Origin: Xanthobacteraceae bacterium
GTDB taxonomy: Bacteria; Pseudomonadota; Alphaproteobacteria; Rhizobiales; Xanthobacteraceae
Assembly: GCA_050010715.1 (NCBI GenBank)
Contig: JBEKKM010000005.1
Span: 18,687 to 82,686, forward strand
DNA length: 64,000 nt
Direction: 5' to 3'
The position numbers and the translations under genes were made by a program. The notes under the pieces were generated by a model. It was not told where the DNA came from. It was given only the letters and a program-made list of their open reading frames with translations, and ran no database searches. Position 1 is the stretch's first letter; each line of letters opens with the position of its first letter. Shown here piece after piece: positions 4,534 to 43,188 of this stretch.

Positions 4534-5535
4534 ATGCAGGCCTTGAGCCGCTGGTCGATTCTGGCGGCAGCGGTGCTCATCGCGCCGATGGCGCGCGCCG
4601 ACGACCTCGCCCCATTCAAGATCGGCATTTCCGCGCCCGTCGTGACCATCTTCCCGGTCTGGATGGCGCAAGCGGCCGGTCTTGACGCCAAGGAAGGGCT
4701 GAAGGTGGAATCCATCAGCATGGAAGGCGGCAGCCGCGGCGTGCAGGTGCTGTTGTCCGGCGAAATCCAGGCCATGCATGTCGGGCTGGCGCCGGTGGTG
4801 CAGGCCAACAAGCAGGGCGCCGACCTCCGCCTCGTCACCTCGACCGCCAACACCATCCCGATCACGATCTTCGCCTCGCCGGCGATCAAGACCGCGGCCG
4901 ACCTCAAGGGCAAGACCATCGGCATCAGCACGTTCGGCTCGGAAACCGACGTGGCGGTGAGCATCGCGCTGCAACGCCTCGGGCTCAAGCGCGACGATGT
5001 CACCGTGTCGCAGATCGGCGGCTCATCGCAGCGCTTCGGTGCGCTGATTGCTGGCCGCATCGATGCCGCGCCGCTGCTCGAGCCCACCATCACCGCGGCG
5101 AAGGAAAAAGGCTTTACGCCGCTGCTCGATCTCGCCGCCGCCAACACGCCGTGGATCTTTGATGGTGTGGTAGTGACCAACGCCTACCTGAAAGCGCACC
5201 GCGACGCGCTCACGCATTTCGTGCGCGCGTATATTGCCGGCGCCTACCTGGCGCTGTCCGACGTCGACAAGGCGAAGGCGCTGATCGCGCAAAAATACAA
5301 GACCAGCGATCCAACGGTGATCGACGCCACCTATAACGACTTCAAGCGGCTGATGCCGCACGATGCCGCGCCGTCCATCCCTGGCGCCAACAATGTCATT
5401 GCCCAGCTTCAGGCCATCGGCATCGAGGTCAGCAACAAGAACATCAGCGACTATGTCGATCTCGGCATCATCGAAGGCCTGAAGAAGGACGGCTACTTTG
5501 AGCAGATGGCGAAGGCCTATCCCGTAAAACAATGA
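4534..5535 (+). CDS. ABC transporter substrate-binding protein (NMT1-like), with signal peptide
   Basis: 333 aa. Signal-like MQALSRWSILAAAVLIAPMARA. Stop overlaps the hyuB start (ATGA at 5532-5535). Confidence 0.85.
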   Translation: MQALSRWSILAAAVLIAPMARADDLAPFKIGISAPVVTIFPVWMAQAAGLDAKEGLKVESISMEGGSRGVQVLLSGEIQAMHVGLAPVVQANKQGADLRLVTSTANTIPITIFASPAIKTAADLKGKTIGISTFGSETDVAVSIALQRLGLKRDDVTVSQIGGSSQRFGALIAGRIDAAPLLEPTITAAKEKGFTPLLDLAAANTPWIFDGVVVTNAYLKAHRDALTHFVRAYIAGAYLALSDVDKAKALIAQKYKTSDPTVIDATYNDFKRLMPHDAAPSIPGANNVIAQLQAIGIEVSNKNISDYVDLGIIEGLKKDGYFEQMAKAYPVKQ

Positions 5536-17191: not shown

Positions 17192-19468
17192 TTACTTGCG
17201 CGCGTCTTGCACGAGCTGCCACACCCGCGACGGTGACAGCGGCAGATCGCGCGGCTCGACGCCGAACGAGCTCAGCGCATCGGCGACCGCATTGGCGATG
17301 ACGCCGCCGACCGAGATGATGCCGCCCTCGCCGGCGCCCTTGGCGCCGAGCGGGTTGATCGGCGAGGGATGCGACTCCATCACAAAACCGCGGATTTTTG
17401 GAAAGTCGCTCGCGGTCGGGATGAGATAATCGGCGAGCGAGCCGGTCAGCAGCTGGCCGTTGTCGTCATAGGCGAGATGCTCCATGAACGCGCCGCCAAG
17501 GCCCTGCACCACGGCGCCGACCAGCTGGCCCTTGAGCGTCAGCGGATTGATCATGCGGCCGCAATTCTCCACGGCCACGTAATCGATGAGCGCGACGGCG
17601 CCGGTTTTTGGATCGACCGCGACATGGGCGGCATGCGCGCCGTAAGCCCAGGTGTGCTTGTGGTTGGAAAACGCACCTTCGACCGACAGCGGCTCCGGCG
17701 CCAGCTCCGCCCACGACACCGATTTGCCGTCGGGCGCCGTGGCCCGGCCGTCGGCGAGCACGACCTCGGCGGAGCCGCAGTTGAGCCGCCGTGCCGCTTC
17801 CGCGCTCATGGCCGCCCGCAGTTTTGCCGCCGCGTCGAGCACGGCCGAACCGCCCATGACGATCGAGCGCGAGTGGTAGGAGCCGTAGCCGTCGCTGACG
17901 TAAGCCGTCGAGCCGTGGAACACGTGATTGATGCGATCCATCGGCATGTCCATGGCGTCGGCGGCGATTTGCGCGAATGCCGTCTCCAGTCCCTGGCCGA
18001 CGCCGGACGAGCCCATATAGACCGTGAGCGTGCCATCGGTTTCCAGCACCAGACGCGCACTTTCCTTCGGGCCGGCGGCGCCGCCTTCGATAAAGCAGCA
18101 CACAGCGAGGCCGTGGTAGCGGCCGTCGATGAGCTTGCCTTTTAGTTTTCCCTTTTCGGCCCAGCCGAATTCGGCGAGACAGCGCTCCAGCGTGACCTGA
18201 TAATCGCCGCTGTCGAGCTCGTCCTTGCTTTCGAACGGCGCGATGGTCGCGACCCGATACGGCATTTCGGCTTCGCGCACGAGATTGCGCCTGCGGAATT
18301 CGACTTGGTCGATGCCGAGATCGCGCGCCGCCATGTCGAGCAGGCGCTCGCGGAAAAAATCGGTCTCGAAGCGGCCCGGCCCGCGATAGGTGCCGACCGG
18401 TGTCTTGTTGGTCAGGAGCAGCGAAACGTCGAGATCGATATTGGGAACGCGATACGGCCCCGACATGAACTGCGCGATGTTGCGCGCGCCGACGGCGCCG
18501 TTGGTGCGCATATAGGCGCCCATGTCGACGAAGCCGTGGCCGCGCAGCCCGAGGATGGTGCCGTCGCGGGCGCAGGCGATCTCGACGTCGCATGCCGCCT
18601 CGCGGGCGTGGTTCATGGTCATCAGGTGCTCGCGGCGGTCCTCGGTCCATTTCACCGGCCGGCCGACGTGGCGCGCCGCGAACGGAATCAGAAAATCCTC
18701 CGGATAGAATTCGCCGCGCGCGCCAAAGCTGCCGCCGACGTCGTACTCGACCATGTCGATGGCATCGACGGCAAGACCGAGCTGCTTTGCGAGGATGCGG
18801 CGGTTGGCGAACAGCACCTTTGCGGCGCCCGACAGCGTCAGCCGGCCGCTCGCCGCATCCCATTCGGCAAGCAGGCCGCGCGGCTCCATGGGCAGCGCAG
18901 TGTGGCGCTGGGTGCTGAAGCGCTCGCGCCGCGTATAAGGCGCGTTTTTGAACGCCGCGTCGGCGTCGCCAAGCGTGGCGCGGAATTTCATCGTGACATT
19001 GCTGCCCTTGTGCTCGAACAGCAGCGTTTCGTTCTTCGCCGCGCTCTGCCAGTTGGCAATGGCCGGCAGCGGCTCGATGTCGACTTCGATGGTGCCGAGC
19101 GCATCCTCGGCAACGCCGGCGCTGTCGGCCAGCACCATGGCCAGCGCCTCGCCGACATAGCGCACCTTGTCGAGCGCCATGACCGGCTGGCCGAAGGCCT
19201 CAAACTCCGGCATCGGCTGCAGCCGCATCGGCACCAGCGGAATGCGATCGCCAAGATCGGCCGCGGTGATGACGGCATGCACGCCGGCGACTTTTTTCGC
19301 CCGCGACACGTCGATAGCGCGGATGCGGCCATGGGCGACCGCGCTGCGCAGGATCGCCGCATGCAACATATCCTTACGGGCAAGATCGTCGACATATTGG
19401 CCGCGGCCGCGGACGAAGCGAAAATCTTCCAACCGTTCGATCGGCTGGCCGACGAACGCTGTCCTCAT
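17192..19468 (-). CDS. Xanthine dehydrogenase family molybdopterin-binding (large) subunit, CoxL-like but not a CO dehydrogenase
   Basis: 758 aa. N-terminus VGQPIERLEDFRFVRGRGQYVDD. Active-site loop GTYRGPGRFETDF. Overlaps the FeS subunit gene (19465-19468). Confidence 0.9.
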   Translation of the reverse strand: MRTAFVGQPIERLEDFRFVRGRGQYVDDLARKDMLHAAILRSAVAHGRIRAIDVSRAKKVAGVHAVITAADLGDRIPLVPMRLQPMPEFEAFGQPVMALDKVRYVGEALAMVLADSAGVAEDALGTIEVDIEPLPAIANWQSAAKNETLLFEHKGSNVTMKFRATLGDADAAFKNAPYTRRERFSTQRHTALPMEPRGLLAEWDAASGRLTLSGAAKVLFANRRILAKQLGLAVDAIDMVEYDVGGSFGARGEFYPEDFLIPFAARHVGRPVKWTEDRREHLMTMNHAREAACDVEIACARDGTILGLRGHGFVDMGAYMRTNGAVGARNIAQFMSGPYRVPNIDLDVSLLLTNKTPVGTYRGPGRFETDFFRERLLDMAARDLGIDQVEFRRRNLVREAEMPYRVATIAPFESKDELDSGDYQVTLERCLAEFGWAEKGKLKGKLIDGRYHGLAVCCFIEGGAAGPKESARLVLETDGTLTVYMGSSGVGQGLETAFAQIAADAMDMPMDRINHVFHGSTAYVSDGYGSYHSRSIVMGGSAVLDAAAKLRAAMSAEAARRLNCGSAEVVLADGRATAPDGKSVSWAELAPEPLSVEGAFSNHKHTWAYGAHAAHVAVDPKTGAVALIDYVAVENCGRMINPLTLKGQLVGAVVQGLGGAFMEHLAYDDNGQLLTGSLADYLIPTASDFPKIRGFVMESHPSPINPLGAKGAGEGGIISVGGVIANAVADALSSFGVEPRDLPLSPSRVWQLVQDARK

Positions 19469-19944
19469 GCGCCGTTCCCGTCGCGCTTATAGGCCGCGCG
19501 CGCGTCGAGCACCGCTTCGACGATGGAAATATAACCGGTGCAGCGACACAGATTGCCGGACAGCACTTCGCGAACCCGATCGGCGTCGCAGTCGGGCTCC
19601 TCGCTGAGCAATGCATGCGCGGTGGTGATCATGCCCGGCGTGCAGAAGCCGCATTGCAGGGCGTGATGCTTGCGGAACGACGCCTGCAGCGGCGTCAAGC
19701 CTTCCTCGAGCGACAGGCCCTCGACGGTCACCACCTTGGCGCCATCGGCCTGCACCGCGAGCAACAGGCACGAGCGCACCGCCGCACCGTCGACCAGCAC
19801 GGTGCAGGAGCCGCACACACCGTGCTCGCAGCCGACATGGGTGCCGGTGAGCCGCAAATGATGGCGCAGGCAATCGGCCAGCGTCAGCCGTGGCTCGACT
19901 TCGACCTCGACCGGCTTGCCGTTGACTTCGAATTTTACCGGCAT
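19465..19944 (-). CDS. (2Fe-2S)-binding small subunit of molybdenum hydroxylase (CoxS-like)
   Basis: 159 aa. Cys motifs [11 protein letters not shown] and CGFCTPG..C..C. Confidence 0.92.
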
Positions 19945-19955
19945 GGTTTTGATCG

Positions 19956-20810
19956 CTACGCCGCCGCGCTTTTGAGCGCGCGCTCGACCATGACGCCGAT
20001 CAGCGCTTTGCGATAGGCGCCGCCGGCGTGGATATCGTCATGGGGATCGACCGACGCCGATGCCGCGGCTTCGGCCTTGGCGATGACGGCCTCGTCGATC
20101 TTGTTGCCGTTAAGGACTTGCTCGACGGCGGGAAGCCGCAACGGCCGGTCGGCGACGCCGATGGCACCGACATGTGCGTTGCTCACCTTCCCGCCGTCCT
20201 CGTCGTAGAACAGCATCGCCGCGGCCAGCGCAAAATCGCCGCGGCGGCGGGCGAATTCCTGAAAGCCGAAGCGGCGCTCGGCCGGCCATGCCGCCAGACG
20301 GATTTCGGTGATGATCTCGTCGGGCTTGAGCGCGGTCATCAGCGGGCCCTGGAAAAAATTCTCCGCCTCGATCACCCGCGCACCGGATTTGCCGACGACG
20401 GCGATCTTCGCCTCGCAGGTCACGACGATGCCCGGCATCTCGGCGGCGGGATCAGCGTGGGCGATGCTGCCACCGACGGTGCCGCGGTTGCGGATTTGAT
20501 AATGCGCGACGTGTTCGACGGCCGCGACCAGCAGCGGCTGCGCCGTGCGCAAGCGCGCATCGTCGAGGATGTCGCGCCAGCGCACCATGGCGCCAAGCGT
20601 GACGCCGTCGTCAGCGATTTTGATCTGTCGCAGCTCGGCAAGCTTGCGCAAATCGACCAGCAGCGATGGCGAAGCGACGCGGAACGCCAGCATCGGCACC
20701 AGACTCTGGCCGCCGGCCAGCGGCTTGGCCTCACCGTCATGCGACGCCAAGAGCGCCACTGCTTCGTCGATTGTGGTCGGGCAGGCATATTCGAAGGGCG
20801 GTAATTTCAT
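19956..20810 (-). CDS. FAD-binding medium subunit of molybdenum hydroxylase (CoxM-like)
   Basis: 284 aa. GGQSLVPML and TVGGSIAHADPAAE FAD-binding motifs. Confidence 0.9.
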   Translation of the reverse strand: MKLPPFEYACPTTIDEAVALLASHDGEAKPLAGGQSLVPMLAFRVASPSLLVDLRKLAELRQIKIADDGVTLGAMVRWRDILDDARLRTAQPLLVAAVEHVAHYQIRNRGTVGGSIAHADPAAEMPGIVVTCEAKIAVVGKSGARVIEAENFFQGPLMTALKPDEIITEIRLAAWPAERRFGFQEFARRRGDFALAAAMLFYDEDGGKVSNAHVGAIGVADRPLRLPAVEQVLNGNKIDEAVIAKAEAAASASVDPHDDIHAGGAYRKALIGVMVERALKSAAA

Positions 20811-20903
20811 ATCCCGGCACGCTTCCTTCGAACCGCCGAAACAGGCGCATTTTCAGCCATTTTCTAGCATCGCCGCCCACACTCGGTCAACGCGCCGCGG
20901 CCA

Positions 20904-21143
20904 TTACGACGTGTCGTCGTCACGCTTGTTGGCGTCGGACAGCACCTTCCACAGCGCGACCCCGTAGTTCACGATGTGCTCTTCCTGGCAATGCTCACAG
21001 CGGTAGGTCCGCATGTCGTCGCCCGACATCGTGCTCTTATCTATCATGTCCATTTCCCGGCCGCATTTGGGACAATCCGTCAGCGACGGCGGCCGCACTG
21101 GTTTGCGGCTGTATATGCGTTTGATCCAAGAGGGCAGCTTCAT
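20904..21143 (-). CDS. Small zinc-ribbon protein (hypothetical)
   Basis: 79 aa from ATG 21143 (AAGGAAA upstream): MKLPSWIKRIYSRKPVRPPSLTDCPKCGREMDM...YRCEHCQEEH. Two CxxC pairs. Sits between the two hydroxylase gene sets. Confidence 0.55.
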   Translation of the reverse strand: MKLPSWIKRIYSRKPVRPPSLTDCPKCGREMDMIDKSTMSGDDMRTYRCEHCQEEHIVNYGVALWKVLSDANKRDDDTS

Positions 21144-21166
21144 TGAAATTTCCTTCGAAGCTGGAA

Positions 21167-23479
21167 TTAAGAACGCACTCCTGCCCTTGATTGCCGCGCG
21201 GTTTGGATCATCTCCCATACCCGCGGCGGCGTCAGCGGCAATTCGCGAAGCGAGACACCAAGCGAACCCAGCGCCGCAGCGACAGCATTGGCAACGACAC
21301 CGCCGACCGGAATGATGCCGCCCTCGCCCGCACCCTTGGCGCCGAGTGGATTGAGCGGTGACGGTTTCTGCTCCAGCGCCACCGCGCGAATGCTCGGGAA
21401 ATCGCTCGCCGTCGGCATCAGGTAATCGGCGAACGAGCCGGTGAGGAATTGGCCATTTTCGTCATAGATGAAGTGTTCGAGCAACGCGCCGCCCAGGCCC
21501 TGCACGACGGCGCCGACGCATTGGCCGTGCAATGTCAGCGGATTGACGATGCGGCCGACGTCTTCGACGGCGACGTAATCGATCAATTCGACGCGGCCGG
21601 TTTTGGGATCGACCGTCACATATGCGGCGTGCGCGCCGTAGGAATAAGTCCGCTTGTTGCTCGCATGCGTGCCGTCGGCGGCAAGGCCGGCGAACTCCTT
21701 GAGTTCGAGCATGGCGCGGTCTGGTCCGACCACCATCTCGTTGTCGAATGAAATTTCGTTCGCCGCGCAGCCGAGCCGCTGCGCGGCTGCCTCACGCATG
21801 AGCGCGCGCAGCCGATTGGCGGCGTCGACGATGGCGTTGCCGCCCATGACGATGGAGCGCGACGAGAACGAGCCAAAACCTTCGGTGACATAATCGGTCG
21901 AGCCGTGGAACACATTGTTGATGCGCTCCATCGGCAGTTCGAGCGCATCGGCGGCGATCTGCGAAAATACCGTTTCGACGCCTTGCCCGACCGACGACGA
22001 GCCGACGAACACCGAGATCTTGCCGTCGGCCTCGATGAGGAGCCGCGCATTTTCCCGCGGCCCGGTCCCGCCGCCTTCGAGATAGCAGCCGATGGCGATG
22101 CCGTGGTAGCGGCCGTCGATCAGCCCGCCCTGCAGCTTCGACCGCTCGGCCCAATTGAATTCGGCGAGGCAGCGGTCGAGCGTCATCTGATAATCGCCGC
22201 TGTCGCATTCGCTGACGATGTCGAGTACCTGCACTTTCGCCAGCGCATAGGGCATGTCGGCTTCGGCGATTAGATTGCGGCGGCGGAATTCGACCCGATC
22301 GATGCCGAGATCGGCCGCCACCATGTCGAACAGCCGTTCGCGGCAGAAATCCGACTCGAAGCGACCTGGCCCGCGATAGGTGCCCGACGGCGTCTTGTTG
22401 GTCACCACCATGGTCACGTCCATGCGCACGTGGGGGATGCGATAGGGCCCGGACATGATTTGCGAAATATTGCGCGACGCGGTGGCGCCGTTGGTGCGCA
22501 CATAGGCGCCGAGATCGGTATAAGCGTGGCCACGCAAGGCGAGAATGTTGCCGTCGCGAGTGCAGGCGATTTCGAGATCGCATGCGGCATCGCGCGCGTG
22601 GCTGAGCGATATCAAATTCTCGCGCCGGTCCTCGGTCCACTTCACCGGACGACCGACGACACGCGCCGCGAATGGAATCAAAAAATCCTCCGGATAAAAC
22701 TCGCCGCGCGCGCCGAAACCGCCGCCGACGTCGTATTCAAGCATCCGCACTGAAGCCTCGGGGAGCTTCATCATCTGTGCCAGCGCGCGGCGGTTGTTGA
22801 ACGGCACTTTGCAGACGCCGGACACCGTCACGCGTAGTTTCGCGGCGTCCCAGTCGGCGACCAGCCCGCGCGGCTCCATCGGCACCGCGCCGTGGCGTTG
22901 CACCTTGAAATGCTCGCGGCGGACGTAAGGCGCATTTTTGAAGGCCGCATCGGTGTCGCCAAGCGTGGCCGTGATGGTGCCTGCGATGTTGCTGCCGGTT
23001 TCTTCGAACAGGAAGACATCGTCCTTGCGCGCGGCATCACGGTCGACCACCGCGGCAAGCGGCTCGATATCGACGCCGATCGCCTCCAATGCGTCTTCGG
23101 CCAGCGCGACGCTATCGGCGACCACGACGGCGATCGGCTCACCGACAAAGCGGACTTTGTCGGCGGCAATGATCGGCTGCACGTAACGCTTGGACGACGG
23201 CAGCGGATCGTGCCGCAATGGAATCGTCGGTATCTCCCCGATATCGGCCGCGGTGATCACGGCATGGACGCCGGGCCGCGCCCGGGCCGCCGCGGTGTCG
23301 ATCGAGCGGATGCGGCCGTGCGCGACGGAGCTGCGCAGGATCACCGCATGCAGCATTGTTTCGCCGGCGAGATCGTCGGTGTATTGGCCGCGCCCGGTGA
23401 GGAAGCGCAAATCCTCGAGCCGCTCGATCGGGCTACCGATGAAGGCGTTGGTGGCGCGGCGCGTTGTCGGGGCGGTCAT
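21167..23479 (-). CDS. Second xanthine dehydrogenase family molybdopterin-binding large subunit (paralogue of 17192-19468)
   Basis: 770 aa. IGSPIERLEDLRFLTGRGQYTDD. Same loop GTYRGPGRFESDF. No adjacent FeS/FAD genes of its own. Confidence 0.9.
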   Translation of the reverse strand: MTAPTTRRATNAFIGSPIERLEDLRFLTGRGQYTDDLAGETMLHAVILRSSVAHGRIRSIDTAAARARPGVHAVITAADIGEIPTIPLRHDPLPSSKRYVQPIIAADKVRFVGEPIAVVVADSVALAEDALEAIGVDIEPLAAVVDRDAARKDDVFLFEETGSNIAGTITATLGDTDAAFKNAPYVRREHFKVQRHGAVPMEPRGLVADWDAAKLRVTVSGVCKVPFNNRRALAQMMKLPEASVRMLEYDVGGGFGARGEFYPEDFLIPFAARVVGRPVKWTEDRRENLISLSHARDAACDLEIACTRDGNILALRGHAYTDLGAYVRTNGATASRNISQIMSGPYRIPHVRMDVTMVVTNKTPSGTYRGPGRFESDFCRERLFDMVAADLGIDRVEFRRRNLIAEADMPYALAKVQVLDIVSECDSGDYQMTLDRCLAEFNWAERSKLQGGLIDGRYHGIAIGCYLEGGGTGPRENARLLIEADGKISVFVGSSSVGQGVETVFSQIAADALELPMERINNVFHGSTDYVTEGFGSFSSRSIVMGGNAIVDAANRLRALMREAAAQRLGCAANEISFDNEMVVGPDRAMLELKEFAGLAADGTHASNKRTYSYGAHAAYVTVDPKTGRVELIDYVAVEDVGRIVNPLTLHGQCVGAVVQGLGGALLEHFIYDENGQFLTGSFADYLMPTASDFPSIRAVALEQKPSPLNPLGAKGAGEGGIIPVGGVVANAVAAALGSLGVSLRELPLTPPRVWEMIQTARQSRAGVRS

Positions 23480-28031: not shown

Positions 28032-28400
28032 ATGGACGAAATCGCAGTAGGCAAGCTGGCTGACATCGCCGACGGCGATTATCGGGTATTCGCCGTGGAA
28101 GAGCTCGAAGTCGGCATCTTCCGCACCGGCAGCAAGGTGCTGGCCTACGAAAACGTCTGCCCGCATGCCGGCGGCCCGGTCTGCCAGGGCAAGATCTTCC
28201 ATCAGGTCGAGGAAATCATCACCCCCGACAAGAAGAGCGCGGGGCTGCGCTTCGGCAAGCAGCGCCACATCGTCTGCCCCTGGCACGGCTACGAATTCGA
28301 CCTCGCCACCGGCTGCCACCCGGGCGACGCCTCGGTGCGGCTGACGCCAGTGAAAGTCGCCGTGCGCGACGGGCAGATCTACGTCAGCGTGCCGCGCTAA
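28032..28400 (+). CDS. Rieske (2Fe-2S) domain protein
   Basis: 122 aa. CPHAGGPV...CPWHGYEF (CxH...CxxH). Confidence 0.9.
   Translation: MDEIAVGKLADIADGDYRVFAVEELEVGIFRTGSKVLAYENVCPHAGGPVCQGKIFHQVEEIITPDKKSAGLRFGKQRHIVCPWHGYEFDLATGCHPGDASVRLTPVKVAVRDGQIYVSVPR
28353..28394 (+). repeat. Direct repeat, left copy (3' end of Rieske gene)
   Basis: AAAGTCGCCGTGCGCGACGGGCAGATCTACGTCAGCGTGCCG; 40/42 identical to 29699-29740. Confidence 0.95.
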
Positions 28401-28411
28401 GCTGCTGCGTT

Positions 28412-29635
28412 TCAGGCTTCCCTTTCACGCCGCATATAGGCCCGGACCTCGCCATCGAGGTCCAACGTCGCGCAGACGGCAATCAAAAGCGACACGGCGC
28501 CAATAGGGAGCGGCGCCGGGAAACGGGCCGCAAACATTTCCCAAGTCACCATGACGATCACAAGATAGCAGGCGCCGGCCAGCATGGTGCGCGAGAGAAC
28601 GCGGTCAATATATGCCGCGGTCGCCTCACTCGGCTCCAGCTTCGCAATCGATCCGCCATATTTTCTCAGGCCGTCGGCCATCTCCTCCGGATCGAACAGC
28701 AAGGCGGTGTAGAGAATTGCGCAGCCAAAGAGCAGCAGCGCATAGACGATCAAGTGCAAAGGCCGGCCGTATCGCAGAGAGACGGCGATGACAGTCGCCC
28801 AAGATGCGCCCTGCGCGACAGCGAAATTCAACAGCGCGACCACCGCGCTCATGATCCACGACGCCAGTAGGACGGGGATGATGCCCGCGCCGTTGAGCTT
28901 CAACGGCAGATCCACCGTTTGCGCGGCGAAAGTCCGCGCCCCGATCCGGTGCTCGGGATAGTCGATACGAATGAATCGCCGCGCCCGCTCTATCAACACG
29001 ACGAAAACGGCAAGGCCGACGACGAACAACACCAGCGTATTGATCCGGTCGCTCGACATCACGCCCTGACGGCCGGCCTCGAACACGTCAGCGACTCTGT
29101 TCGGCAACGCAGTGACGATGGGCACAAGAAGCAGCAGGACAAGGCCGTTGCCGACGCCGCGCAGGGTGATTTGTTCGCTCAGCCAAACCAGGAACAGTGT
29201 GCCGCCGATCAACGTAAGGGTGGTCGAGAGTGTGAACAGCCAAGACGGTGCGGCCACGATGCCGGGCACACTCTCAAGCCCGATTGCGACTCCCGAGGCC
29301 TGCCCAGCCGCGAGCAACACTGTGAGAACGCGTGTCATTCGATCGATGGTACGGCGGCCCCGAGCGCCGCTCTGCTTCAGCGCTCTCAGTCGTCCCGACA
29401 CCAGCGTAAGAAGCTGAAGGATGATCGCCGCCCAAACATAGGGAAGAATGCCAAGCGCGAAGATCGCCAGGCGATGGATGCCATTAGGGCTGCCGCGGTA
29501 AAGCTCCTCCAAAGCCGCTGGATCGAGGCCCGGCAATGGCACAAAAGTGCCGAACCGATAAACAAGGAGCGCGCCGACGGTGAACGCAATCCGCCATGCA
29601 AACTCTATCATGGTGCGCTCCCAACCCGCGACCAT
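28412..29635 (-). CDS. Divergent SecY-like protein-conducting channel paralogue
   Basis: 407 aa, collinear with SecY across TM1-TM10. Matching segments: FTVGALLVYRFGTFVPLPGLD, IFALGILPYVWAAIILQLL, GGTLFLVWLSEQITLRGVGNGLVLLL, LPLKLNGAGIIPVLLASWI and FDPEEMADGLRKYGG. Not in a ribosomal-protein operon context. An alternative start is ATG 29611. Confidence 0.8.
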   Translation of the reverse strand: MVAGWERTMIEFAWRIAFTVGALLVYRFGTFVPLPGLDPAALEELYRGSPNGIHRLAIFALGILPYVWAAIILQLLTLVSGRLRALKQSGARGRRTIDRMTRVLTVLLAAGQASGVAIGLESVPGIVAAPSWLFTLSTTLTLIGGTLFLVWLSEQITLRGVGNGLVLLLLVPIVTALPNRVADVFEAGRQGVMSSDRINTLVLFVVGLAVFVVLIERARRFIRIDYPEHRIGARTFAAQTVDLPLKLNGAGIIPVLLASWIMSAVVALLNFAVAQGASWATVIAVSLRYGRPLHLIVYALLLFGCAILYTALLFDPEEMADGLRKYGGSIAKLEPSEATAAYIDRVLSRTMLAGACYLVIVMVTWEMFAARFPAPLPIGAVSLLIAVCATLDLDGEVRAYMRREREA

Positions 29636-29698: not shown

Positions 29699-29740
29699 AA
29701 GGTCGCCGTGCGCGACAGGCAGATCTACGTCAGCGTGCCG
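29699..29740 (+). repeat. Direct repeat, right copy (overlaps 3' end of GMC oxidoreductase gene on the other strand)
   Basis: AAGGTCGCCGTGCGCGACAGGCAGATCTACGTCAGCGTGCCG followed by AAGTAG. Encodes KVAVRDRQIYVSVPK-stop in an otherwise non-coding plus frame. Confidence 0.95.
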
Positions 29741-31433
29741 AAGTAGCGGAGATTTCGCGCAGCATCGCGTCGGCGAGTTTTTCCGCGACCATAATGGTCG
29801 GAATATTGGTGTTGCCGCGCGGGATCGTCGGCATAATCGAGGCGTCGATGACGCGCAAACCGTCGACGCCGTGAACGCGGCCGGCCGGATCGGTCACGGC
29901 GTCGCGATCGCCGGATGCGCCCATGCGGCAGGTTCCGACCGGATGGAACGTGCCGCCGACGTTGTCGCGAATGTAATCGGCCAGCGCGGCGTCGTCTTTG
30001 GCCAATGCCGCAAGATCGACGCGCCGGTCGGCCAGCGTGGCAAAAACCGGCGCCGCGAGCGGCGGCACCATGTCGATCAGCGCCGCGATCGCCGCGCTCT
30101 TGATCCGGTTGGCCGGCGTGATGCGATTGAGCCGCCGCAGCCGGTCGTTGAATTTGACCGGGAAGGTCAGCCGCGTCATGGCCCGCACCGCATCGTGGGC
30201 CAGAATGTCGATACAGAGGCGAAAGCCCTGCATGAAGCGTTTCAGGTCGAGCTCGTGGCCGGTGAAATTGAATTCAACGCGCGGATAGATCGCGGCATTG
30301 GCCGAGACCAACGACACGCGGCCGCGCGCCATCGGCTTGAGCAGTGACGGCGCCAGATTGGCGACCTGGCGGCCGAGCGGACTCCACGACGTCTTGCACT
30401 GCACGTTGAGATACATGTCGGCCGCCGCCGCGCCGGGCAGGCCGGAGGAATAGCGAAACGCCGACATCGGATGCGGCCGGATATTTTTCGCTTGCCGCTG
30501 GCCGGGCTTCTGTAGCAAGCCGATGAAGACGATGGCGTGGTTGGAGAGGTTTTCGCCGACGCCCGGAAGATCTGAGCGCACGGCAATGCCGAGGTCACGC
30601 AGCGCCGCCGCCGGGCCAAGTCCCGCGCGCATAAGAAATGCCGGCGAATGGATGCCGCCGAGCGCGATGATGATCTGGCGTCCGTAGAACGCTTTCTCCT
30701 CGCCGCCGATCCTGGCCGTGACACCGGTGGCACGACGCCCCTCGAACATAAGGCCGGTCACCAAGGCGTCGGTGCGGATCGTAAGATTGGCGCGGCGGCG
30801 GACATCGGCACCGAGATAGCAGATCGCCGCCGAGGCGCGTTTTTGCGGCCAATTGCTCATCGGCACCGCGCCATAGCCGTCGCGAAAATCGGCATTCATG
30901 TCGGCGATGAACGGCATCTGCCGCTCTTGTGCAAAAGCGTGCACTGCCTTCGCCAGCGGCGCCCAATCGTCGGTCGTGGTGCGGCGGATCGGCACCGGCC
31001 CATCCTTGCCGTGCAGCGCGCCGTCGAAATCGAAATCGTTCTCGAGCTTGCAGTAATAGGGCAGCACGTCGTCCCAACCCCAACCGGCCGCACCAAGCGC
31101 CTGCCATTCGGCATAATCGTCGGGCGTGCCGCGATAGGCGACCATGCCCATCACAGAACCGCCGCCACCCATGATGCGGCCTTGAGAAAATCCGACAAGC
31201 GGCGAGTTGTCCTTGCGCCGCCAGTGCACCTTCAGCTCGGGCCAAAAATAGGCGTCGTTGTAGTAGGACTGCGGATAGCTATCGAGCACATCGGCCGGCT
31301 CGGCGCCCGGCGGCGTGTCGCGGCCGGCTTCGAGCAACAGCACGTTCAAGCCCGAGCGCGCCGACAACCGGTTCGCCAGCACGCAACCCGCCGCGCCGGC
31401 GCCGACGATGATGATGTCGAAGGTCTCGGTCAC
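29730..31433 (-). CDS. GMC family oxidoreductase (choline dehydrogenase-like)
   Basis: 567 aa. FDIIIVGAGAAGCVLANRLS FAD motif. C-terminal GTCRMG...HGVDGLRVIDASIMP. Confidence 0.92.
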   Translation of the reverse strand: MTETFDIIIVGAGAAGCVLANRLSARSGLNVLLLEAGRDTPPGAEPADVLDSYPQSYYNDAYFWPELKVHWRRKDNSPLVGFSQGRIMGGGGSVMGMVAYRGTPDDYAEWQALGAAGWGWDDVLPYYCKLENDFDFDGALHGKDGPVPIRRTTTDDWAPLAKAVHAFAQERQMPFIADMNADFRDGYGAVPMSNWPQKRASAAICYLGADVRRRANLTIRTDALVTGLMFEGRRATGVTARIGGEEKAFYGRQIIIALGGIHSPAFLMRAGLGPAAALRDLGIAVRSDLPGVGENLSNHAIVFIGLLQKPGQRQAKNIRPHPMSAFRYSSGLPGAAAADMYLNVQCKTSWSPLGRQVANLAPSLLKPMARGRVSLVSANAAIYPRVEFNFTGHELDLKRFMQGFRLCIDILAHDAVRAMTRLTFPVKFNDRLRRLNRITPANRIKSAAIAALIDMVPPLAAPVFATLADRRVDLAALAKDDAALADYIRDNVGGTFHPVGTCRMGASGDRDAVTDPAGRVHGVDGLRVIDASIMPTIPRGNTNIPTIMVAEKLADAMLREISATSAR

Positions 31434-37122: not shown

Positions 37123-37608
37123 TCATGAAGCCCGCCCAAGGCCCAAAACGGCGCCTTCGAGCCCGGCTGACGTAAGGACCGCCAGGACCGCCGGCAAGGC
37201 CTCATCGCCGGCTGCGATAGCGAGTCGCGGTAAGTTTATCCCGGCGATAACGGCGTGTTGCCTTTCGGTTTCCGGCAATCGTTCGGCGTCCGCGGCGGCG
37301 AGATCGACTACCAGGCCGACCACGGCGCTTGGCTCGTGATCGATCTGCCGGATGCCGACGCCACGGATCTCGATCAGGCCGGCCAAAGGCTCGGCCGGGC
37401 GCACCAGCAACCGCCCGTTGGCCGGTTCGAGATGAACGCGGTCGTCGCCGACCAGCCTGGCAAAGCGCAAAGTCCCCGTGCGTGCCGCCTCGATGAGCGC
37501 CAGCGCCAGACGCGACTTGCCCGCGCCGGACGGCCCGCGGATCAAAACCGCGCGCGCGCCGACCAGCACCGCCGAAGCGTGCACCGTCGTTGCCCGTTGC
37601 GCCATCAC
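37123..37608 (-). CDS. hprK: HPr kinase/phosphorylase, short alphaproteobacterial form (C-terminal domain only)
   Basis: 161 aa. HASAVLVGARAVLIRGPSGAGKS P-loop and LIEIRGVGI. Start overlaps the chvG stop. Confidence 0.85.
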   Translation of the reverse strand: MMAQRATTVHASAVLVGARAVLIRGPSGAGKSRLALALIEAARTGTLRFARLVGDDRVHLEPANGRLLVRPAEPLAGLIEIRGVGIRQIDHEPSAVVGLVVDLAAADAERLPETERQHAVIAGINLPRLAIAAGDEALPAVLAVLTSAGLEGAVLGLGRAS

Positions 37609-39518
37609 ATCGCCGGCAAGCGCACGACGAAGCGCGCGCCGAGCACTGTGGGCGTACCATCGGCGTCCGGCGGCCCGGTGCGGTTTTCCACCCAGATGGT
37701 GCCGCCATGGGCTTCGGCGATCTGCTTGGAGATGGACAGGCCGAGGCCGGAGTTCTGGCCAAAGCCCTGGTGCGGGCGATCGGTGTAAAAACGCTCGAAG
37801 ATTTTATCCAGCACGTCGGGCCGCACGCCCGGGCCGTCGTCATCGACGGAAATCTCGACGTTGTTTTTCACCCGCCGGCAGGTGACGCGCACCGTGCCGT
37901 TCGGCGGCGAGAACGAGCGTGCGTTCTCGATCAGATTGTCGACGATCTGGCCGAGTCGCGAATCGTGCCCCGGCACCAAGAATGCCCGGCCGCCGCCGCC
38001 TTCGAACCGAAGCGTGACCGTGACGCCGTCGTCGCGCTTCACCTCGTTGGCGACCGCGACCAGCGTGCTCAACAGCTTGGCGAAATCGACCGGTGCCGCT
38101 TCCTGGCGCTGCAGCTCGGCGTCGAGGCGGCTGGCGTCGGAAATGTCGGAAATCAGCCGATCGAGCCGGCGGACGTCGTGCTGGATGATGGCGAGCAGCC
38201 GCGCCCGGCTTTCGTCGGTCTTGGCGAGCGGCAGCGTTTCCACCGCCGAGCGCAGCGAGGTCAGCGGATTTTTCAGTTCGTGCGACACGTCGGCGGCAAA
38301 GCTTTCGATCGCCTCGATCCGGCTATAGAGCGCATTGGTCATGTCGCGGAACGCGCCGGAGAGGTGTCCGATCTCGTCGTGGCGGCGCGTGAAATCCGGA
38401 ATTTCGACGCGCGAACGGATGCGGCGGCGCACGCTTTCGGCGGCTTCCGCCAGCCGCCGCACCGGCTCGGCGATGGTTCCGGCGAGCAGGATCGACAGCA
38501 GCACCATGACGGCCGTGGCGATCAAAAACACCTTGAGAATGGCGAGCCGCTCGGCTTCCACCATGTCGTCGATATCGGCGCCTTGCGTCGACAGCATCAG
38601 CGCGCCGCGCACCGCGCGGAAGCGCTGTACCGGGACCGCGACCGAAACGATGACGTCGCCGCGGTCGTTGATGCGGACCATGCTGGAATCCTGGCCGCTC
38701 AAGGCCTGGTCGACTTCGGGATAGCCCTTGCCGTTTTCGGCGCCGAGCTCGCGGTAAAGCGGCAGGTCGCCGCGGCCGAGCCAGCGCCGGACCGCGAGGA
38801 AAGCGCGTTCGAATACACCCGGCTTTTCGGCGGTGGGCGGCGGTAGATCGAAGCGCAGCACGTCGCCGCGTCCGAACAGGTTGCGGCTGTCGACCAAGAG
38901 CACGCCGTCGCGATCGTAAATCCGCGCCCGCGTCTTGGTCGGCGAAATCAGTCGCCGCAAGAGCGGCGCCACGCGCTCGGGATTGATCGGAAAATCGATA
39001 CCGTACAGCGCGTCCTCGGACGGGCCGTAGCTTTGCCCTGGCTGCAGATTGAGCAGCGTGTCCGGATTGATGGTGATCGATGAGTCGGTCTCGACCGTCG
39101 CCGAGGCGGCGATGGCGCCGGCGATGATTTGGCTCTGCACCAACAAACTTTGCACGCGCGCGTCGATCAGCCCGGCGCGGAATTGCGACAGATAGATGAT
39201 ACCGATCGACAGTGCGAGCAGGCCGAAGACATTGAGCGTGACGATACGGCGGGTGACGCTCGACGAGCTCTGCTCGGTGAAAAACTGGAGAGCACGCCGC
39301 AGCCAATCGCCGACCCGGCGCAGCCGGCGCCAGCGCACGCGCACGCGCGGCAGCGCTTCGCCGCGACCGTCGGCCTCAATGAGAGCCTCGGCTTCGTCCG
39401 GTGCATGGGCCTCATCGGCCCCCGCGGTTTTTGCTAGTCGATCAAGCACGTCGTCTGCCGGGGTTTCGATCAGCTCCGCCCTCCACTTACAGGGAGGGTA
39501 CGGCGAGCCAAACGCCAT
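37605..39518 (-). CDS. chvG: Sensor histidine kinase ChvG/ExoS-like
   Basis: 637 aa. Two TM segments, HAMP, H-box FAADVSHELKNPLTS, N/G boxes DDDGPGV and GLGLSISKQI. Directly downstream of chvI. Confidence 0.88.
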   Translation of the reverse strand: MAFGSPYPPCKWRAELIETPADDVLDRLAKTAGADEAHAPDEAEALIEADGRGEALPRVRVRWRRLRRVGDWLRRALQFFTEQSSSSVTRRIVTLNVFGLLALSIGIIYLSQFRAGLIDARVQSLLVQSQIIAGAIAASATVETDSSITINPDTLLNLQPGQSYGPSEDALYGIDFPINPERVAPLLRRLISPTKTRARIYDRDGVLLVDSRNLFGRGDVLRFDLPPPTAEKPGVFERAFLAVRRWLGRGDLPLYRELGAENGKGYPEVDQALSGQDSSMVRINDRGDVIVSVAVPVQRFRAVRGALMLSTQGADIDDMVEAERLAILKVFLIATAVMVLLSILLAGTIAEPVRRLAEAAESVRRRIRSRVEIPDFTRRHDEIGHLSGAFRDMTNALYSRIEAIESFAADVSHELKNPLTSLRSAVETLPLAKTDESRARLLAIIQHDVRRLDRLISDISDASRLDAELQRQEAAPVDFAKLLSTLVAVANEVKRDDGVTVTLRFEGGGGRAFLVPGHDSRLGQIVDNLIENARSFSPPNGTVRVTCRRVKNNVEISVDDDGPGVRPDVLDKIFERFYTDRPHQGFGQNSGLGLSISKQIAEAHGGTIWVENRTGPPDADGTPTVLGARFVVRLPAM

Positions 39519-39608
39519 TACTACCGCACGCCAGCCGCCCGGTCAGGGGCCATGATTCTCCAGTCTAAGGACCGGCAGTTCCTGGCCTGTCGCGCCAATG
39601 TCCGCGCG

Positions 39609-40304
39609 TTATTCCTTGAAACGATAACCTACGCCGTACAAGGTCTCGATCATATCGAATTCGTCGTCGCTGGCCTTGAACTTCTTGCGCAGCCGCTTGA
39701 TGTGGCTGTCGATGGTCCGGTCGTCGACATAGACTTGGTCGTCATAGGCCGCATCCATCAGCGCGTTACGGCTTTTCACCACGCCAGGCCGGCTGGCCAG
39801 CGCCTGCAAGATGAGAAATTCGGTGACGGTGAGCGTCACCGGCTCGTTCTTCCAGGTGCAGGTGTGGCGCTCGGGATCCATGCGCAGGAGCCCGCGCTCC
39901 AGCACTTTGCTGTCGGCCTCCTTCGGAGCGGCGCCGTCTTTGGGCGAAGCGCGGCGCAGCACGGCCTTGACCCGCTCGACCAGAAGGCGCTGCGAAAACG
40001 GCTTCCGGATGAAGTCGTCGGCGCCCATTTTCAGGCCGAACAATTCGTCGATCTCTTCGTCCTTCGAGGTGAGGAAGATCACCGGCAGGTCGGATTTTTG
40101 ACGGAGCCGCCGCAGCGTCTCCATGCCGTCCATGCGCGGCATCTTGATGTCGAGGATGGCGAGGTCGGGCAACGTGGTCTTGAAACCGTCCAGCGCCGAA
40201 GCGCCGTCGGTATAGGTCGTGATGCGATAGCCTTCCGCCTCGAGCGCGATTGAGACCGAGGTGAGGATATTGCGGTCGTCGTCCACCAGAGCGATTGTCG
40301 GCAT
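39609..40304 (-). CDS. chvI: OmpR-family response regulator ChvI
   Basis: 231 aa. [39 protein letters not shown], winged-helix C-terminus YGVGYRF. Confidence 0.9.
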
Positions 40305-40435
40305 GACGGCCTTCTAGCATGAGTCGGCCGCAGCATCACACCTGCCCGGCCCCACCTAACGTTCAAACCCCATGTGGGGGCGGAAGTGTGACTAGACAAG
40401 GCAAAATCGGGGCAATTGCCGTGAGATAGAGAGAC

Positions 40436-41272
40436 ATGGGAAAGGAACCGGAAAGGACAAACATGGCTGAGAACGGCGGCATTGGCCCGTTGGGAGCTCC
40501 ATTGCCGGGCGCCATGCCAAACCGCCTTCCTGAAAACGCCCCGGCACCGGATTTCGACCCGAAAGCGGTGGCCAAGAGCCTGCTGCGGGCCACGCGGGCC
40601 GGCGCGCTTGCGACCATCGACCGCAATACCGGCCATCCCTTCGCGTCATTGGTTAACGTGGCGACCGATATCGACGGCTCGCCGCTGATCCTGGTCTCCC
40701 GGCTTTCCACCCACACCGCCAATCTTGAAGTCGACGGCCGCGCCTCGCTCTTGCTGGCGTCGGCCGGCAAAGGCGACCCGCTGGCCCATCCGCGCCTGAC
40801 GCTGCTCGGCAGTTTTGAGCAAATCGCCCGCGATGATCCGGAATTGCCGCGCCTGCGGCGCCGCTTCCTCGCCCGCCATCCGAAATCGGAGCTTTATGCC
40901 AGCTTCGGCGATTTCTCGTTCTGGCGCCTGAAGACTGTCTCAGCCCACCTTAACGGCGGCTTCGCCCGCGCCGCCGATCTCAAAGCCGCCGATGTGATGA
41001 CCGATATTGCCGATGCCGGAAACCTGATCGACACCGAAGAGGGTGCGGTCGCGCATATGAACGACGACCACGCCGAAGCGGTGCGCCTCTACGCCACCAA
41101 GCTACTCGGCGCCGAAGACGGGCGATGGCGGCTCACCGGGCTCGACCCCGACGGCCTCGACTTGGCGCGCGGCGACGCCACCTTGCGCCTGCCATTTCCG
41201 CAGCGTGTCACAAACGCCGAGCAGTTGCGCAGGATGGTGGTGGAATTGGCCGCCAAGGCGCGAGCCGGCTAG
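40436..41272 (+). CDS. HugZ-like / pyridoxamine 5'-phosphate oxidase-related FMN-binding protein with DUF2470-type C-terminal domain
   Basis: 278 aa. LATIDRNTGHPFASLVNVATDIDGSPLILVSRLSTHTANL is typical of this family. The start may be ATG 40463. Confidence 0.75.
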   Translation: MGKEPERTNMAENGGIGPLGAPLPGAMPNRLPENAPAPDFDPKAVAKSLLRATRAGALATIDRNTGHPFASLVNVATDIDGSPLILVSRLSTHTANLEVDGRASLLLASAGKGDPLAHPRLTLLGSFEQIARDDPELPRLRRRFLARHPKSELYASFGDFSFWRLKTVSAHLNGGFARAADLKAADVMTDIADAGNLIDTEEGAVAHMNDDHAEAVRLYATKLLGAEDGRWRLTGLDPDGLDLARGDATLRLPFPQRVTNAEQLRRMVVELAAKARAG

Positions 41273-41568
41273 GCATTCTCTGCCAAAAAGCGCCGGTAAT
41301 GGAACGTAACCACGCCACCCGGAAACACGCTGGCTCCGCTGCGTTGCAACACGGGAATGCGTGCAATCCTATCCGGTTAGCCTTGAGGTCGCCTCGGTCT
41401 TGGCAGAAGCTGTGAGGCTCGATATAGGGTCGCACGCTTGCCGGCGGGCGGGTTAACATTCGGCATCGTAAATCGGCGGCCAAGACGTTGGCGACGAAGG
41501 CTCGGCGCAATTGGCGGAAGTATCGATACGATCGGGCCAAGAGATCGAGCCAAGAGGCGGAGGCTTAG

Positions 41569-43188
41569 GTGAAGGAAACGGGTTCGAGGAACGGCGCTCA
41601 CGGCGCCGACAAATTCGGCTTCAAAGATCTCGCCGGCGTCCATTGGAATTTGCCCGACACCGTCCTGGTCGAGCACGCCATCGCCAACCGCGAAGGCTCA
41701 CTGGTGCAAGGCGGCGCGTTCTGCGCCGAAACCGGCCATCACACCGGCCGCTCGCCGAAAGACAAACATACCGTGGTCGACGCGACGACCGAGAACACCG
41801 TGTGGTGGGACGGCAATCGCAAGCAGAGCAAAGAACAGTTCGACAATCTGCTTCACGATTTCATCGCCCATGCCAAGGGCAGAACCCTGTTCGCGCAGGA
41901 CCTCTATGGCGGCGCCGATCCGCAATACCGCATCAAGGCGCGGGTCTTTACCGAGCTCGCCTGGCATTCGCTGTTCATCCGTCAGCTGCTGATCCGTCCC
42001 GAAGCGGCGGAGCTTGCGAGCTACGTTCCCGACATGACGATCGTCGACATGCCGTCGTTTCGGCCGGACGCCAAGCGGCACGGCGGCCGCGAAAACTCCG
42101 ACACCATGGTGGCGATCGACTTCACCCGCAAGATCGTCCTGATCTGCGGCTCGTCCTATGCCGGCGAGATAAAGAAGGCGGTGTTCACGACATTGAATTT
42201 CTACCTGCCGGCGCAGGGCGTGATGCCGATGCATTGCTCGGCCAATGTCGGCAAGCACGATGACGTCGCGCTGTTCTTCGGCTTGTCGGGCACCGGCAAG
42301 ACCACGCTGTCGGCCGATCCGAACCGCACCTTGATCGGCGACGACGAGCACGGCTGGAGCGAGAACGGCGTGTTCAATTTCGAGGGCGGCTGCTACGCCA
42401 AGTGCATCAGGCTGTCGAAGGAAGCCGAGCCGGAAATCTACGCCGCGACCAACCGCTTCGGCGCGGTGCTGGAGAACGTCGTCTTCGATCCCGCAACCCG
42501 CGTCTGCGATTTCGACAGCGACAAGCTCACGGAAAATACCCGCTCGGCCTATCCGATCGAGTTCATGCCGCTGGCGTCGAAAACCGGCCACGCCGGCCAG
42601 CCGAAGAACATCGTCTTCCTCACCGCCGACGCCTTCGGCGTCATGCCGCCGATCGCGAAACTCACGCCGGCGCAGGCGATGTACCACTTCCTGTCCGGCT
42701 ACACCGCCAAGGTCGCCGGCACCGAAAAAGGCCTGGTCGGCGTCGAGCCGGAATTCTCCACCTGCTTCGCCGCGCCGTTCCTGCCGCGGCCGCCGGCCGA
42801 ATACGGCAATTTGCTGCGCGACCTGATCAAGAAACACAATGTCGATTGCTGGCTGGTCAATTCCGGCTGGACCGGCGGCATCTACGGCACCGGCCGCCGC
42901 ATGCCGATCAAGGCGACGCGCGCCCTGGTCACCGGCGCGCTCGACGGCTCGCTCAAGAACGCGAGCTACCGCACCGATCCGTACTTTGGTTTCGCCGTGC
43001 CGACCTCGGTGCCCGGCGTCGAGCCGCACCTGCTCTATCCGATGAAGACCTGGAAGGACAAAGCCGCGTTCGACGAGACCGCGCGGAAACTCGTGCGCAT
43101 GTTCCAGGACAATTTCGTCAAATACGAAAAGCACGTCGACGCCGACGTCCGCGCCGCCGCGCCGGAAGTGCGGCTCGCGGCGGAGTGA
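41569..43188 (+). CDS. pckA: Phosphoenolpyruvate carboxykinase (ATP)
   Basis: 539 aa. GTG start with GGCGGAGG upstream. Kinase-1a GLSGTGKTT and RSPKDK motif. Confidence 0.96.

Follow-up and report, generated by a model that had tools for sequence, protein, structure and literature searches.

A divergent SecY paralogue family of Xanthobacteraceae-type Alphaproteobacteria that has lost the C5-loop arginine: a candidate auxiliary channel

The stretch of DNA analysed here, referred to as the window, comprises 64,000 nucleotides of contig JBEKKM010000005.1 (positions 18,687 to 82,686, forward strand) in the Xanthobacteraceae bacterium assembly GCA_050010715.1, and carries on its minus strand a stand-alone gene for a shortened homologue of the channel protein SecY. 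The gene and its product are called secY′ and SecY′ in the following. Judged by its sequence, the protein belongs to a distinct and apparently undescribed family of SecY paralogues of Xanthobacteraceae-type Alphaproteobacteria, in which the arginine of the cytoplasmic C5 loop (R357 in Escherichia coli SecY) is replaced throughout. Since the loss of R357 is accompanied by changes in the channel-unlocking regions of the protein, the best-supported reading is that SecY′ is an auxiliary SecY-type channel, whose gating would no longer depend on the canonical SecA/ribosome switch and would have been re-tuned by changes inside the protein; we assign this reading a probability of about one half.

Relatives of the window protein were obtained by a protein search of 5.8 billion sequences. 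They comprised a tight clade with 62-100 % identity and lengths of 393-407 aa, and about 85 other short SecY-like proteins (395-425 aa, 42-50 % identity) that were mixed with proteins of 443-454 aa, the 443-aa relatives being the housekeeping SecY encoded in the spc operon (rplO-secY-adk). Altogether 108 short paralogues and 91 canonical SecYs were aligned to E. coli SecY, with additional controls coming from a metagenome scan with generic SecY patterns that returned 79 canonical SecYs and one paralogue. R357 is present in 91/91 canonical SecYs and in 0/108 short paralogues, where the position is occupied by E (61 proteins), A (32), D (9), T (3) or, once each, by Q, P and G. The altered C5 loop is a defining trait of the whole SecY′ family and not a peculiarity of the window. 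All 91 canonical proteins also share G175, an all-Ile or nearly all-Ile pore ring and, one internally gapped sequence aside, a plug segment of 35 residues. For the window protein itself, the replacement of R357 by glutamate had been proposed in an earlier reading of the sequence alone (the sequence-only reading); as phmmer places 'klePse' under 'giRPge' of E. coli SecY, the change is real and holds in a computed alignment.

R357 has been described as fully conserved in each of the three domains of life, and the C5 'RPG' motif with this arginine as the switch by which SecA and ribosomes activate SecY/Sec61 (PMC4826270). The triple change R357E/P358D/G359P ('EDP') abolishes SecA activation and translocation and lowers the affinity for SecA more than 10-fold; the defect is partly rescued by prlA4 (F286Y in transmembrane helix 7, TM7, and I408N in TM10), I284C/T404C is likewise activating, and the regions in which prlA mutations fall are TM7, TM10 and the plug (PMC4826270). 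The single change R357E stabilises the closed plug without abolishing SecA binding, and R357E channels do not open with SecA and ATP (PMC6021171), while its effect on ribosome binding is disputed (PMC3689939).

The plug, TM7 and TM10 are all altered in SecY′. In the window clade the core of the plug helix is deleted, that is, 12 residues corresponding to E. coli G58-G70, which read GGILGMFNMFSGG in canonical relatives; secondary structure assignment by DSSP on an AlphaFold 2 (AF2) model leaves a helix of 4 residues (53-56) as compared to 66-72 in a canonical control. Plug shortening recurs in several independent SecY′ clusters and occurs in none of the full-length canonical SecYs; most SecY′ members nevertheless retain a plug segment of full length. 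In TM7 of the family F279, L285, L286 and T289 are lost, P287 drops from 100 % to 29 % (V in the window protein) and W282 is gained, and in TM10 T404 and V412 are lost, C411 and L414 are gained, and an acidic residue is found at 417. The basic tail of canonical relatives (...KRSKLRGRRR) is gone from the family as a whole. In the window protein 11 residues follow E. coli position 420, as compared to 21 or more in canonical SecYs whose 3' end is intact and 24 or more in the housekeeping SecY of related bacteria.

These changes are part of a broader pattern of loss and gain. Of the positions that are invariant among canonical SecYs, 60/157 are kept in SecY′; 14 such positions are lost (Q118, M172, G175, S188, I191, K250, F279, T289, F327, N338, T342, N345, R357 and V412), and 8 residues are conserved in SecY′ alone, including S175 (91 %), R241 (90 %), W282 (88 %) and C411 (96 %). 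The family signature, in E. coli numbering, consists of A89, S175, L191, R241, W282, a non-Arg residue at 357 and C411, and the window protein carries it as A70, S153, L169, R219, W260, E334 and C388. Identity to the canonical consensus was also expressed region by region, relative to that of other canonical SecYs, using approximate E. coli topology boundaries (UniProt P0AGA2). The lowest ratios were found for the cytoplasmic tail C6 (0.16), the N-terminus (0.35) and TM7 (0.46), followed by C2 (0.53), C5 (0.62), C4 (0.63) and TM6/TM10 (0.64); TM1 (1.0) and TM9 (0.94) are retained. The cytoplasmic face has lost much of its charge, from a net +13.2±1.5 in canonical SecYs to +7.5±2.2 in the paralogues (p = 4e-32; +7 in the window protein). 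C4, C5 and C6 together fall from about +9.6 to +1.7, and C2 gains charge.

Some parts of the channel are preserved. The pore ring (positions 82, 86, 187, 191, 278 and 408) reads I-V-L-L-L-I in the window protein as compared to I-I-I-I-I-I in canonical SecYs, and across about 100 members of the family it is a mixture of I, V and L that is aliphatic at all six positions. The motifs LAIFALGI.PY of TM2b and LPLKLN at the N-terminal end of TM7 are kept, and TM1 and the E238/A240/R242 region are conserved. Retention of the aliphatic pore ring, the lateral-gate motifs and TM1 fits a channel that may still conduct polypeptides and bind SecE.

On these grounds we propose that SecY′ would form a SecE-stabilised membrane channel beside the housekeeping SecYEG, and that the C5 'RPG' switch would no longer tie its gating to SecA or the ribosome. 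The changes in TM7, TM10 and the plug may act as natural 'unlocking' mutations of the prlA type, which would offset the lost arginine. Such an auxiliary channel would open more readily or follow a different gating, and it might serve a subset of substrates or work beside a canonical SecY that supplies the docking site. More tentatively, one may imagine a naturally 'unlocked' channel that works without the R357 switch, the C6 tail and, in the window clade, the plug, and that is either driven by something other than direct docking of SecA or the ribosome or conducts for a SecY-SecY′ pair whose canonical member docks the motor. As regards such a pair, in work cited in PMC3432775 a defective SecY could be rescued by linkage to a wild-type copy. 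Among laboratory mutants of SecY, R357E and EDP are inactive, prlA4 and I284C/T404C are unlocked, and plug deletions are known from PDB 2YXQ/2YXR. SecY′ unites the inactivating change in C5 with changes in TM7, TM10 and the plug, the three regions to which unlocking or suppressor mutations map and in which such mutations were shown to rescue the EDP defect (PMC4826270, PMC6021171). The residues are not those of the mutants: SecY′ has W282 and C411, has lost P287 and T404, retains I408 and has no C6 tail.

The assignment to SecY is secure. The open reading frame (ORF) that the sequence-only reading had marked is real, and all the peptides quoted there are present in its translation. Pfam SecY (PF00344) matches the product with E = 6e-72 and 243 bits (cutoff 32.2) over profile positions 2-304 of 306, and NCBIfam TIGR00967 is passed narrowly (269.3 bits, cutoff 253.6). 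Among PDB sequences, phmmer aligns E. coli SecY collinearly with E = 5e-82 (query 11-402, E. coli 11-418), which bears out the proposed collinearity. The AF2 model built with 88 homologues has a predicted local distance difference test score (pLDDT) of 88.8 and a predicted TM-score (pTM) of 0.84; every top match in a Foldseek search of the PDB was a SecY, with TM-scores of 0.73-0.83 except for one low-resolution fitted model, and DSSP recovers the helices of the two-halves fold with 10 TMs and a C4 beta-hairpin at 220-245. As a weak hint of an 'open-like' state, the model has a TMt of 0.80-0.82 to SecA-engaged structures and of 0.74 to resting ones, as compared to 0.83-0.86 and 0.83 for the model of the canonical control, of which the pLDDT is only 74.

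The estimate that the protein is about 35 aa shorter than housekeeping SecY also held, the lengths being 407 aa (probably 399) and 443 aa in related bacteria; the deficit is explained by the 12-residue deletion in the plug core, the short C-terminal tail and a shorter N-terminus. The second ATG, at 29611, is probably the true start, as suggested by a GGGAG Shine-Dalgarno sequence 6 nt upstream of it; the 399-aa start is used in most gene calls of the clade, and the start stretch is conserved in all syntenic loci. By its sequence SecY′ is a member of the SecY superfamily that lacks several features defining the housekeeping equivalog, namely R357, the plug, the basic tail and the operon position. 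Compared directly with E. coli SecY (P0AGA2), it is alike in full collinearity, the 10-TM fold, the aliphatic pore ring and the core motifs of TM2b, TM5 and TM7. It differs from housekeeping SecY in having E for R357, no basic C6 tail, a shorter N-terminus and a deleted plug core, in the loss of P287, F279, T404 and G175 and the gain of W282 and C411, and in a gene that lies outside the spc operon and evolves several times faster.

The family has its usual home elsewhere. In six loci from different sub-clades SecY′ is encoded inside the spc operon in the order rplO-secY-secY′-adk, with secY directly upstream and adk downstream (L012, from a Xanthobacteraceae metagenome-assembled genome (MAG), and L014, L015, L096, L042 and L097), whereas secY is followed directly by adk in 49/50 canonical loci with enough downstream sequence; the tandem order is thus peculiar to this lineage. 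As the neighbouring secY encodes the canonical 443-aa protein, SecY′ coexists with housekeeping SecY in these loci. The stop of secY and the start of secY′ overlap as ATGA in all six tandem loci, and the two genes are probably co-transcribed and translationally coupled. The arrangement is most simply explained by an origin of SecY′ through tandem duplication of the housekeeping secY. One of the six, L097 (1639-5507), has a 226-aa C-terminal fragment of canonical secY that includes R357 and is 90 % identical to that of L012, followed by secY′, adk, rpsM, rpsT and dnaA, with an unrelated gene upstream on the other strand. A partial duplication of the segment, a breakpoint or a chimeric assembly might explain this rearranged spc end.

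Relocated copies were found at four unrelated sites, namely in the window clade, in P0083 (beside an LplA-type gene), in P0109 and in P0095. For P0095, on a contig of JGI (Joint Genome Institute) dataset 3300047160, the secY′ gene (3918-5126) overlaps by 4 nt the end of a gene for a 930-aa DUF2339 polytopic membrane protein (1129-3921), which suggests that in this lineage the translation of secY′ is coupled to that of another gene. The position of secY′ in the window is shared by relatives with identity down to 64 % (L001, L002/L003, L005 and L006). Given the usual home in the spc operon, the stand-alone copy of the window is a relocated derivative, and given the conservation of its site, the stand-alone state is derived but old within the clade. 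The description of the gene as an orphan in the sequence-only reading thus stands for this window, where the neighbours are genes for a Rieske ferredoxin-like protein and a GMC oxidoreductase and not rplO or adk; for the family it has to be amended, since the usual place is right after secY. The related statement that Sec partner genes are absent nearby agrees with our Pfam sweep, in which no SecA/E/G/DF, YidC, Ffh or FtsY was found in the 64-kb window (crude gene call, 46 ORFs directly) or in the annotation of the syntenic loci.

The family is one of soil Xanthobacteraceae and is known mostly from metagenomes. An exhaustive profile search of 1.84 billion cluster representatives gave, among the top 150, about 40 clusters at 50 % identity that bear the SecY′ signature; nearly all are metagenomic and of Xanthobacteraceae type, and their members are mutually just 42-56 % identical. 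In a neighbour-joining tree the short proteins form one clade in 100/100 bootstraps, as does the window clade (100/100), and by this tree the SecY′ family is shown to be monophyletic with respect to the sampled canonical SecYs. The least diverged SecY′ proteins are 58-65 % identical to canonical SecYs of Xanthobacteraceae type and 50-57 % to other alphaproteobacterial ones, and one is 62 % identical to the adjoining canonical copy. Within the 90 % cluster of the window protein is an NCBI MAG protein that bears the label Xanthobacteraceae (order Hyphomicrobiales, also Rhizobiales), and a contig scan with clade-specific peptide patterns recovered a single close relative, MAG CAWCSD01. An NCBI MAG carries the protein as MGD0147382.1. 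According to a 2008 review, the SecYEG complex of the analysed Alphaproteobacteria is equivalent to its counterpart in other bacteria. A search of the open-access literature, which did not extend to subscription-only papers, turned up neither an alphaproteobacterial SecY paralogue nor a spc operon with secY in tandem, in line with the earlier remark that a characterised orphan SecY paralogue is not known from Rhizobiales.

The gene evolves fast but is maintained. Across the syntenic loci the ratio of nonsynonymous to synonymous substitution rates (dN/dS) of secY′ is 0.23-0.52, and 0/1000 codon bootstraps reach 1. Among the neighbouring genes lepA has 0.04-0.10, the Rieske gene 0.05-0.11 and the GMC gene about 0.2 (overall range of the neighbours 0.04-0.27). 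Reading frames are of 393-407 aa in 26 diverged members of the clade, and neither a truncation among about 100 full-length family members nor an internal stop in the five syntenic genes translated was seen. In L002 (7637-7837) and L003 (5214-5414) the GMC gene is cut to a 66-aa N-terminal stub beside an intact secY′. A dN/dS below 1 and intact frames indicate that secY′ is functional despite evolving several times faster than its neighbours, and by the codon bootstraps it is shown to be under purifying selection. The G+C content at third codon positions (GC3) of secY′ (window 28412-29611) is 0.735 (z = -3.3), and each of the 40 other window genes that were examined has a higher value (0.829±0.028). 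SecY′ also has a lower GC3 and a higher GC1 than the adjoining canonical secY in every tandem pair, which suggests weaker codon selection. A local peak of AT skew at 28-30 kb (0.193) coincides with secY′, perhaps because its coding strand, which is the minus strand, is rich in T.

Several observations weigh against an uncoupled auxiliary channel. The coexistence of canonical secY and SecY′ is known only from six other loci of the family, the relocated copies examined have no conserved neighbour that would hint at a substrate, and the neighbour-joining tree is open to long-branch attraction. The dN/dS of secY′ is 2-10 times that of neighbouring genes, and part of the amino-acid divergence may be due to relaxed constraint and GC-biased drift rather than adaptation, the changes I-to-L/V, K-to-R/E, F-to-L, S/T-to-A and N-to-D being drift-like. 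The 'open-like' hint of the AF2 model leans on a control model of low pLDDT. As for a heterodimer with canonical SecY, R357E has been reported to disfavour SecY dimers, in work cited in PMC6021171, and SecY oligomers are not essential in E. coli (PMC3432775).

Of the other explanations, the one that survives best, though in our view unlikely, is that SecY′ is a regulatory or decoy subunit that does not translocate, and that titrates SecE/SecG, pairs with SecY so as to modulate the number or activity of translocons, or serves as a decoy or resistant target for toxins of contact-dependent inhibition (CDI) or for phages. The two best-known determinants of motor coupling, R357 and the C6 tail, are lost and the docking face is largely neutralised, and in E. 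coli the R357E channels fail to open with SecA and ATP (PMC6021171). Fast evolution is common for conflict-related or low-constraint proteins, co-expression from the spc operon with probable translational coupling would suit a stoichiometric modulator, and SecY is a known entry route of CDI toxins (PMC7858069). However, all six pore-ring positions have stayed aliphatic, and the TM2b and TM7 motifs have been kept, in about 100 members that share just 42-56 % identity, and new conserved residues in the channel interior (W282, C411) would be needless for a mere SecE sponge. Moreover, no toxin, immunity or phage genes were found beside secY′ in the contexts examined.

It is less probable still that SecY′ now serves another purpose, either letting ions, small molecules or lipids through or assisting membrane proteins as a chaperone or an insertase-like scaffold. 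Deletion of the SecY plug compromises the membrane seal according to PDB entries 2YXQ/2YXR, and the window clade is without the plug core; the docking loops are lost, and one relocated copy overlaps the end of the DUF2339 membrane-protein gene described above. Nevertheless most members have a full-length plug segment, the hydrophobic pore ring and the lateral-gate motifs are conserved, leakiness of a channel made from the spc operon would carry a cost, and no transport or metabolic partner is consistently associated with the gene.

A further explanation, for which we see very little room, is that SecY′ is an equivalent spare or condition-specific housekeeping SecY, or a SecY2 of the Gram-positive style working with SecA2. 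SecY′ proteins are labelled 'SecY' in databases and the window protein passes the TIGR00967 cutoff, if narrowly; SecY2/SecA2 systems show that specialised second translocons exist (PMC5076819), and like SecY2 of the accessory Sec (aSec) system, SecY′ is a second paralogue that coexists with the housekeeping channel. On the other hand, every member lacks R357, without which SecA-driven translocation fails in E. coli (PMC4826270), and the family descends from an alphaproteobacterial secY instead of the SecY2 lineage. The window protein stays far short of the cutoffs of the SecY2 profiles (TIGR02920 114.5 against 249.6, NF009082 121 against 353), and no secA2, asp or glycosyltransferase/adhesin cluster occurs in the window or in any of 10 distinct contexts, so that membership of the Gram-positive SecY2 was rejected. 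Unlike SecY2, SecY′ has neither SecA2, Asp1-5 nor a serine-rich glycoprotein locus, is of separate origin and has its ancestral site in the spc operon.

That SecY′ is a decaying duplicate becoming a functionless pseudogene, which the sequence-only reading had allowed and for which its raised dN/dS, the lowest GC3 among the window genes and the loss of residues essential in E. coli SecY could be quoted, is hardly credible and was rejected, because dN/dS is significantly below 1 in all comparisons, the frames are intact with lengths held at 393-407 aa in 26 clade members, family residues are 88-96 % conserved despite 42-56 % mutual identity, the exact ATGA junction is kept across sub-clades, and secY′ is retained where the adjoining GMC gene has decayed.

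Extra secY genes of the canonical type are also carried on plasmids. Paraburkholderia fungorum, for example, has one on a plasmid of about 440 kb (about 435-447 kb among the plasmids bearing it), and in L098 (NZ_CP099644.1, 289653-290987) the gene lies by a MerR regulator, lgt, a TolA-like gene, two DUF2933 genes and a heavy-metal P-type ATPase. Its product resembles SecY′ in being a second SecY encoded outside the spc operon of a proteobacterium. It is a full-length protein of 444 aa that keeps R357, a complete plug, Ile at all positions of the pore ring and a tail of 27 residues; it does not bear the SecY′ signature, and the duplication is unrelated to SecY′. A search of plasmids found secY copies of the canonical type only.

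The features of secY′ and its immediate surroundings in the window are collected in Table 1.

Table 1. Positions in the window of secY′, of the altered segments of its product and of the adjoining genes and repeats.
Feature	Position	Strand	Remarks
secY′ ORF	28412..29635	-	407 aa from first ATG; stop codon 28412-28414; full-length SecY homologue with 10-TM fold
Probable true start	29609..29622	-	ATG 29611-29609; GGGAG Shine-Dalgarno 29622-29618; product 399 aa (MIEFAWRI...)
Shortened periplasmic TM1-TM2b segment (L37-F59)	29459..29527	-	23 residues vs 35 in canonical SecY
TM7 signature residues	28841..28870	-	L256 (pore-ring 278), L257 (F279 lost), W260 (position 282), V265 (P287 lost)
E334 codon	28634..28636	-	Aligned with E. 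coli R357 of the C5-loop 'RPG'; KLEPSE in the window, GIRPGE in E. coli
TM10 signature residues	28454..28495	-	V381 (T404 lost), I385 (pore-ring 408), C388 (411), A389, L391, D394 (acidic, 417)
Truncated cytoplasmic C-terminal tail (C6)	28415..28453	-	13 residues, GEVRAYMRREREA
Small Rieske [2Fe-2S] protein	28032..28400	+	122 aa; convergent with secY′; context, not a Sec component
GMC-family oxidoreductase	29730..31433	-	567 aa; upstream of secY′ on the same strand
Direct repeat, copy 1	28353..28394		42 nt; 3' end of the Rieske-like gene
Direct repeat, copy 2	29699..29740		Upstream of secY′; supplies last codons and stop of the GMC gene

Co-transcription of the GMC oxidoreductase gene and secY′ is possible. 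Beyond the Rieske gene lie a gene for a 115-aa protein without a Pfam match and an amidohydrolase gene, and lepA lies on the GMC side. A scan for sigma-70 promoters gave no candidate, and terminator-like matches were at chance level. The two copies of the direct repeat are identical at 40/42 positions (95 %) and bracket a 1346-nt unit that contains secY′. The upstream copy is present in the window, L001 and L005 and missing from L002 and from L006, the 64 % relative; given its absence from L006, the repeat may be secondary and not the original footprint of an insertion, although it could be either an insertion footprint or the result of a secondary rearrangement. In L005 (3068-5592) a gene for a CHAT-domain protein and five small ORFs are inserted after lepA and are followed by a 41-aa C-terminal fragment of LepA, a duplicated gene 3' end in the same style as the Rieske repeat by secY′.

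In the rest of the window Pfam recognised genes of catabolism, of transport, of polysaccharide metabolism and of two-component systems. Genes for hydantoinase B/A and for two sets of subunits of molybdoenzymes of the xanthine-dehydrogenase type (MoCoBD, Fer2, FAD-binding) are found at 5532-9352 and 17192-23479, which makes the surroundings of secY′ a catabolic region rather than one of envelope biogenesis. At 37123-43188 the window encodes a protein with only the C-terminal domain of HPr kinase, a sensor kinase of the ChvG/ExoS type (Stimulus_sens_1), a response regulator and a divergent pckA; the syntenic counterpart in L002 also has EIIA-Man and HPr. This neighbourhood is similar to the chvI-chvG-hprK/pckA arrangement that is typical of Alphaproteobacteria.

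With SecY′, one of the most conserved operon ends of bacteria, rplO-secY-adk, gains a further gene, and about 100 sequenced members under purifying selection have dispensed with the R357 switch. The proteins are named plainly 'preprotein translocase subunit SecY' in databases, and can therefore mislead marker-gene phylogenies, estimates of the completeness and contamination of MAGs from single-copy genes, and metabolic reconstructions. The family offers a natural set of variants for testing how docking on the cytoplasmic side reaches the gating of the channel, and it bears on the old and disputed question of whether two SecY copies cooperate. If the idea of a naturally unlocked channel is true, it would represent a new mode of Sec-type transport, with both SecY copies produced from the spc operon across a large group of soil bacteria, and a natural counter-example to the reported complete conservation of R357 in the three domains of life.

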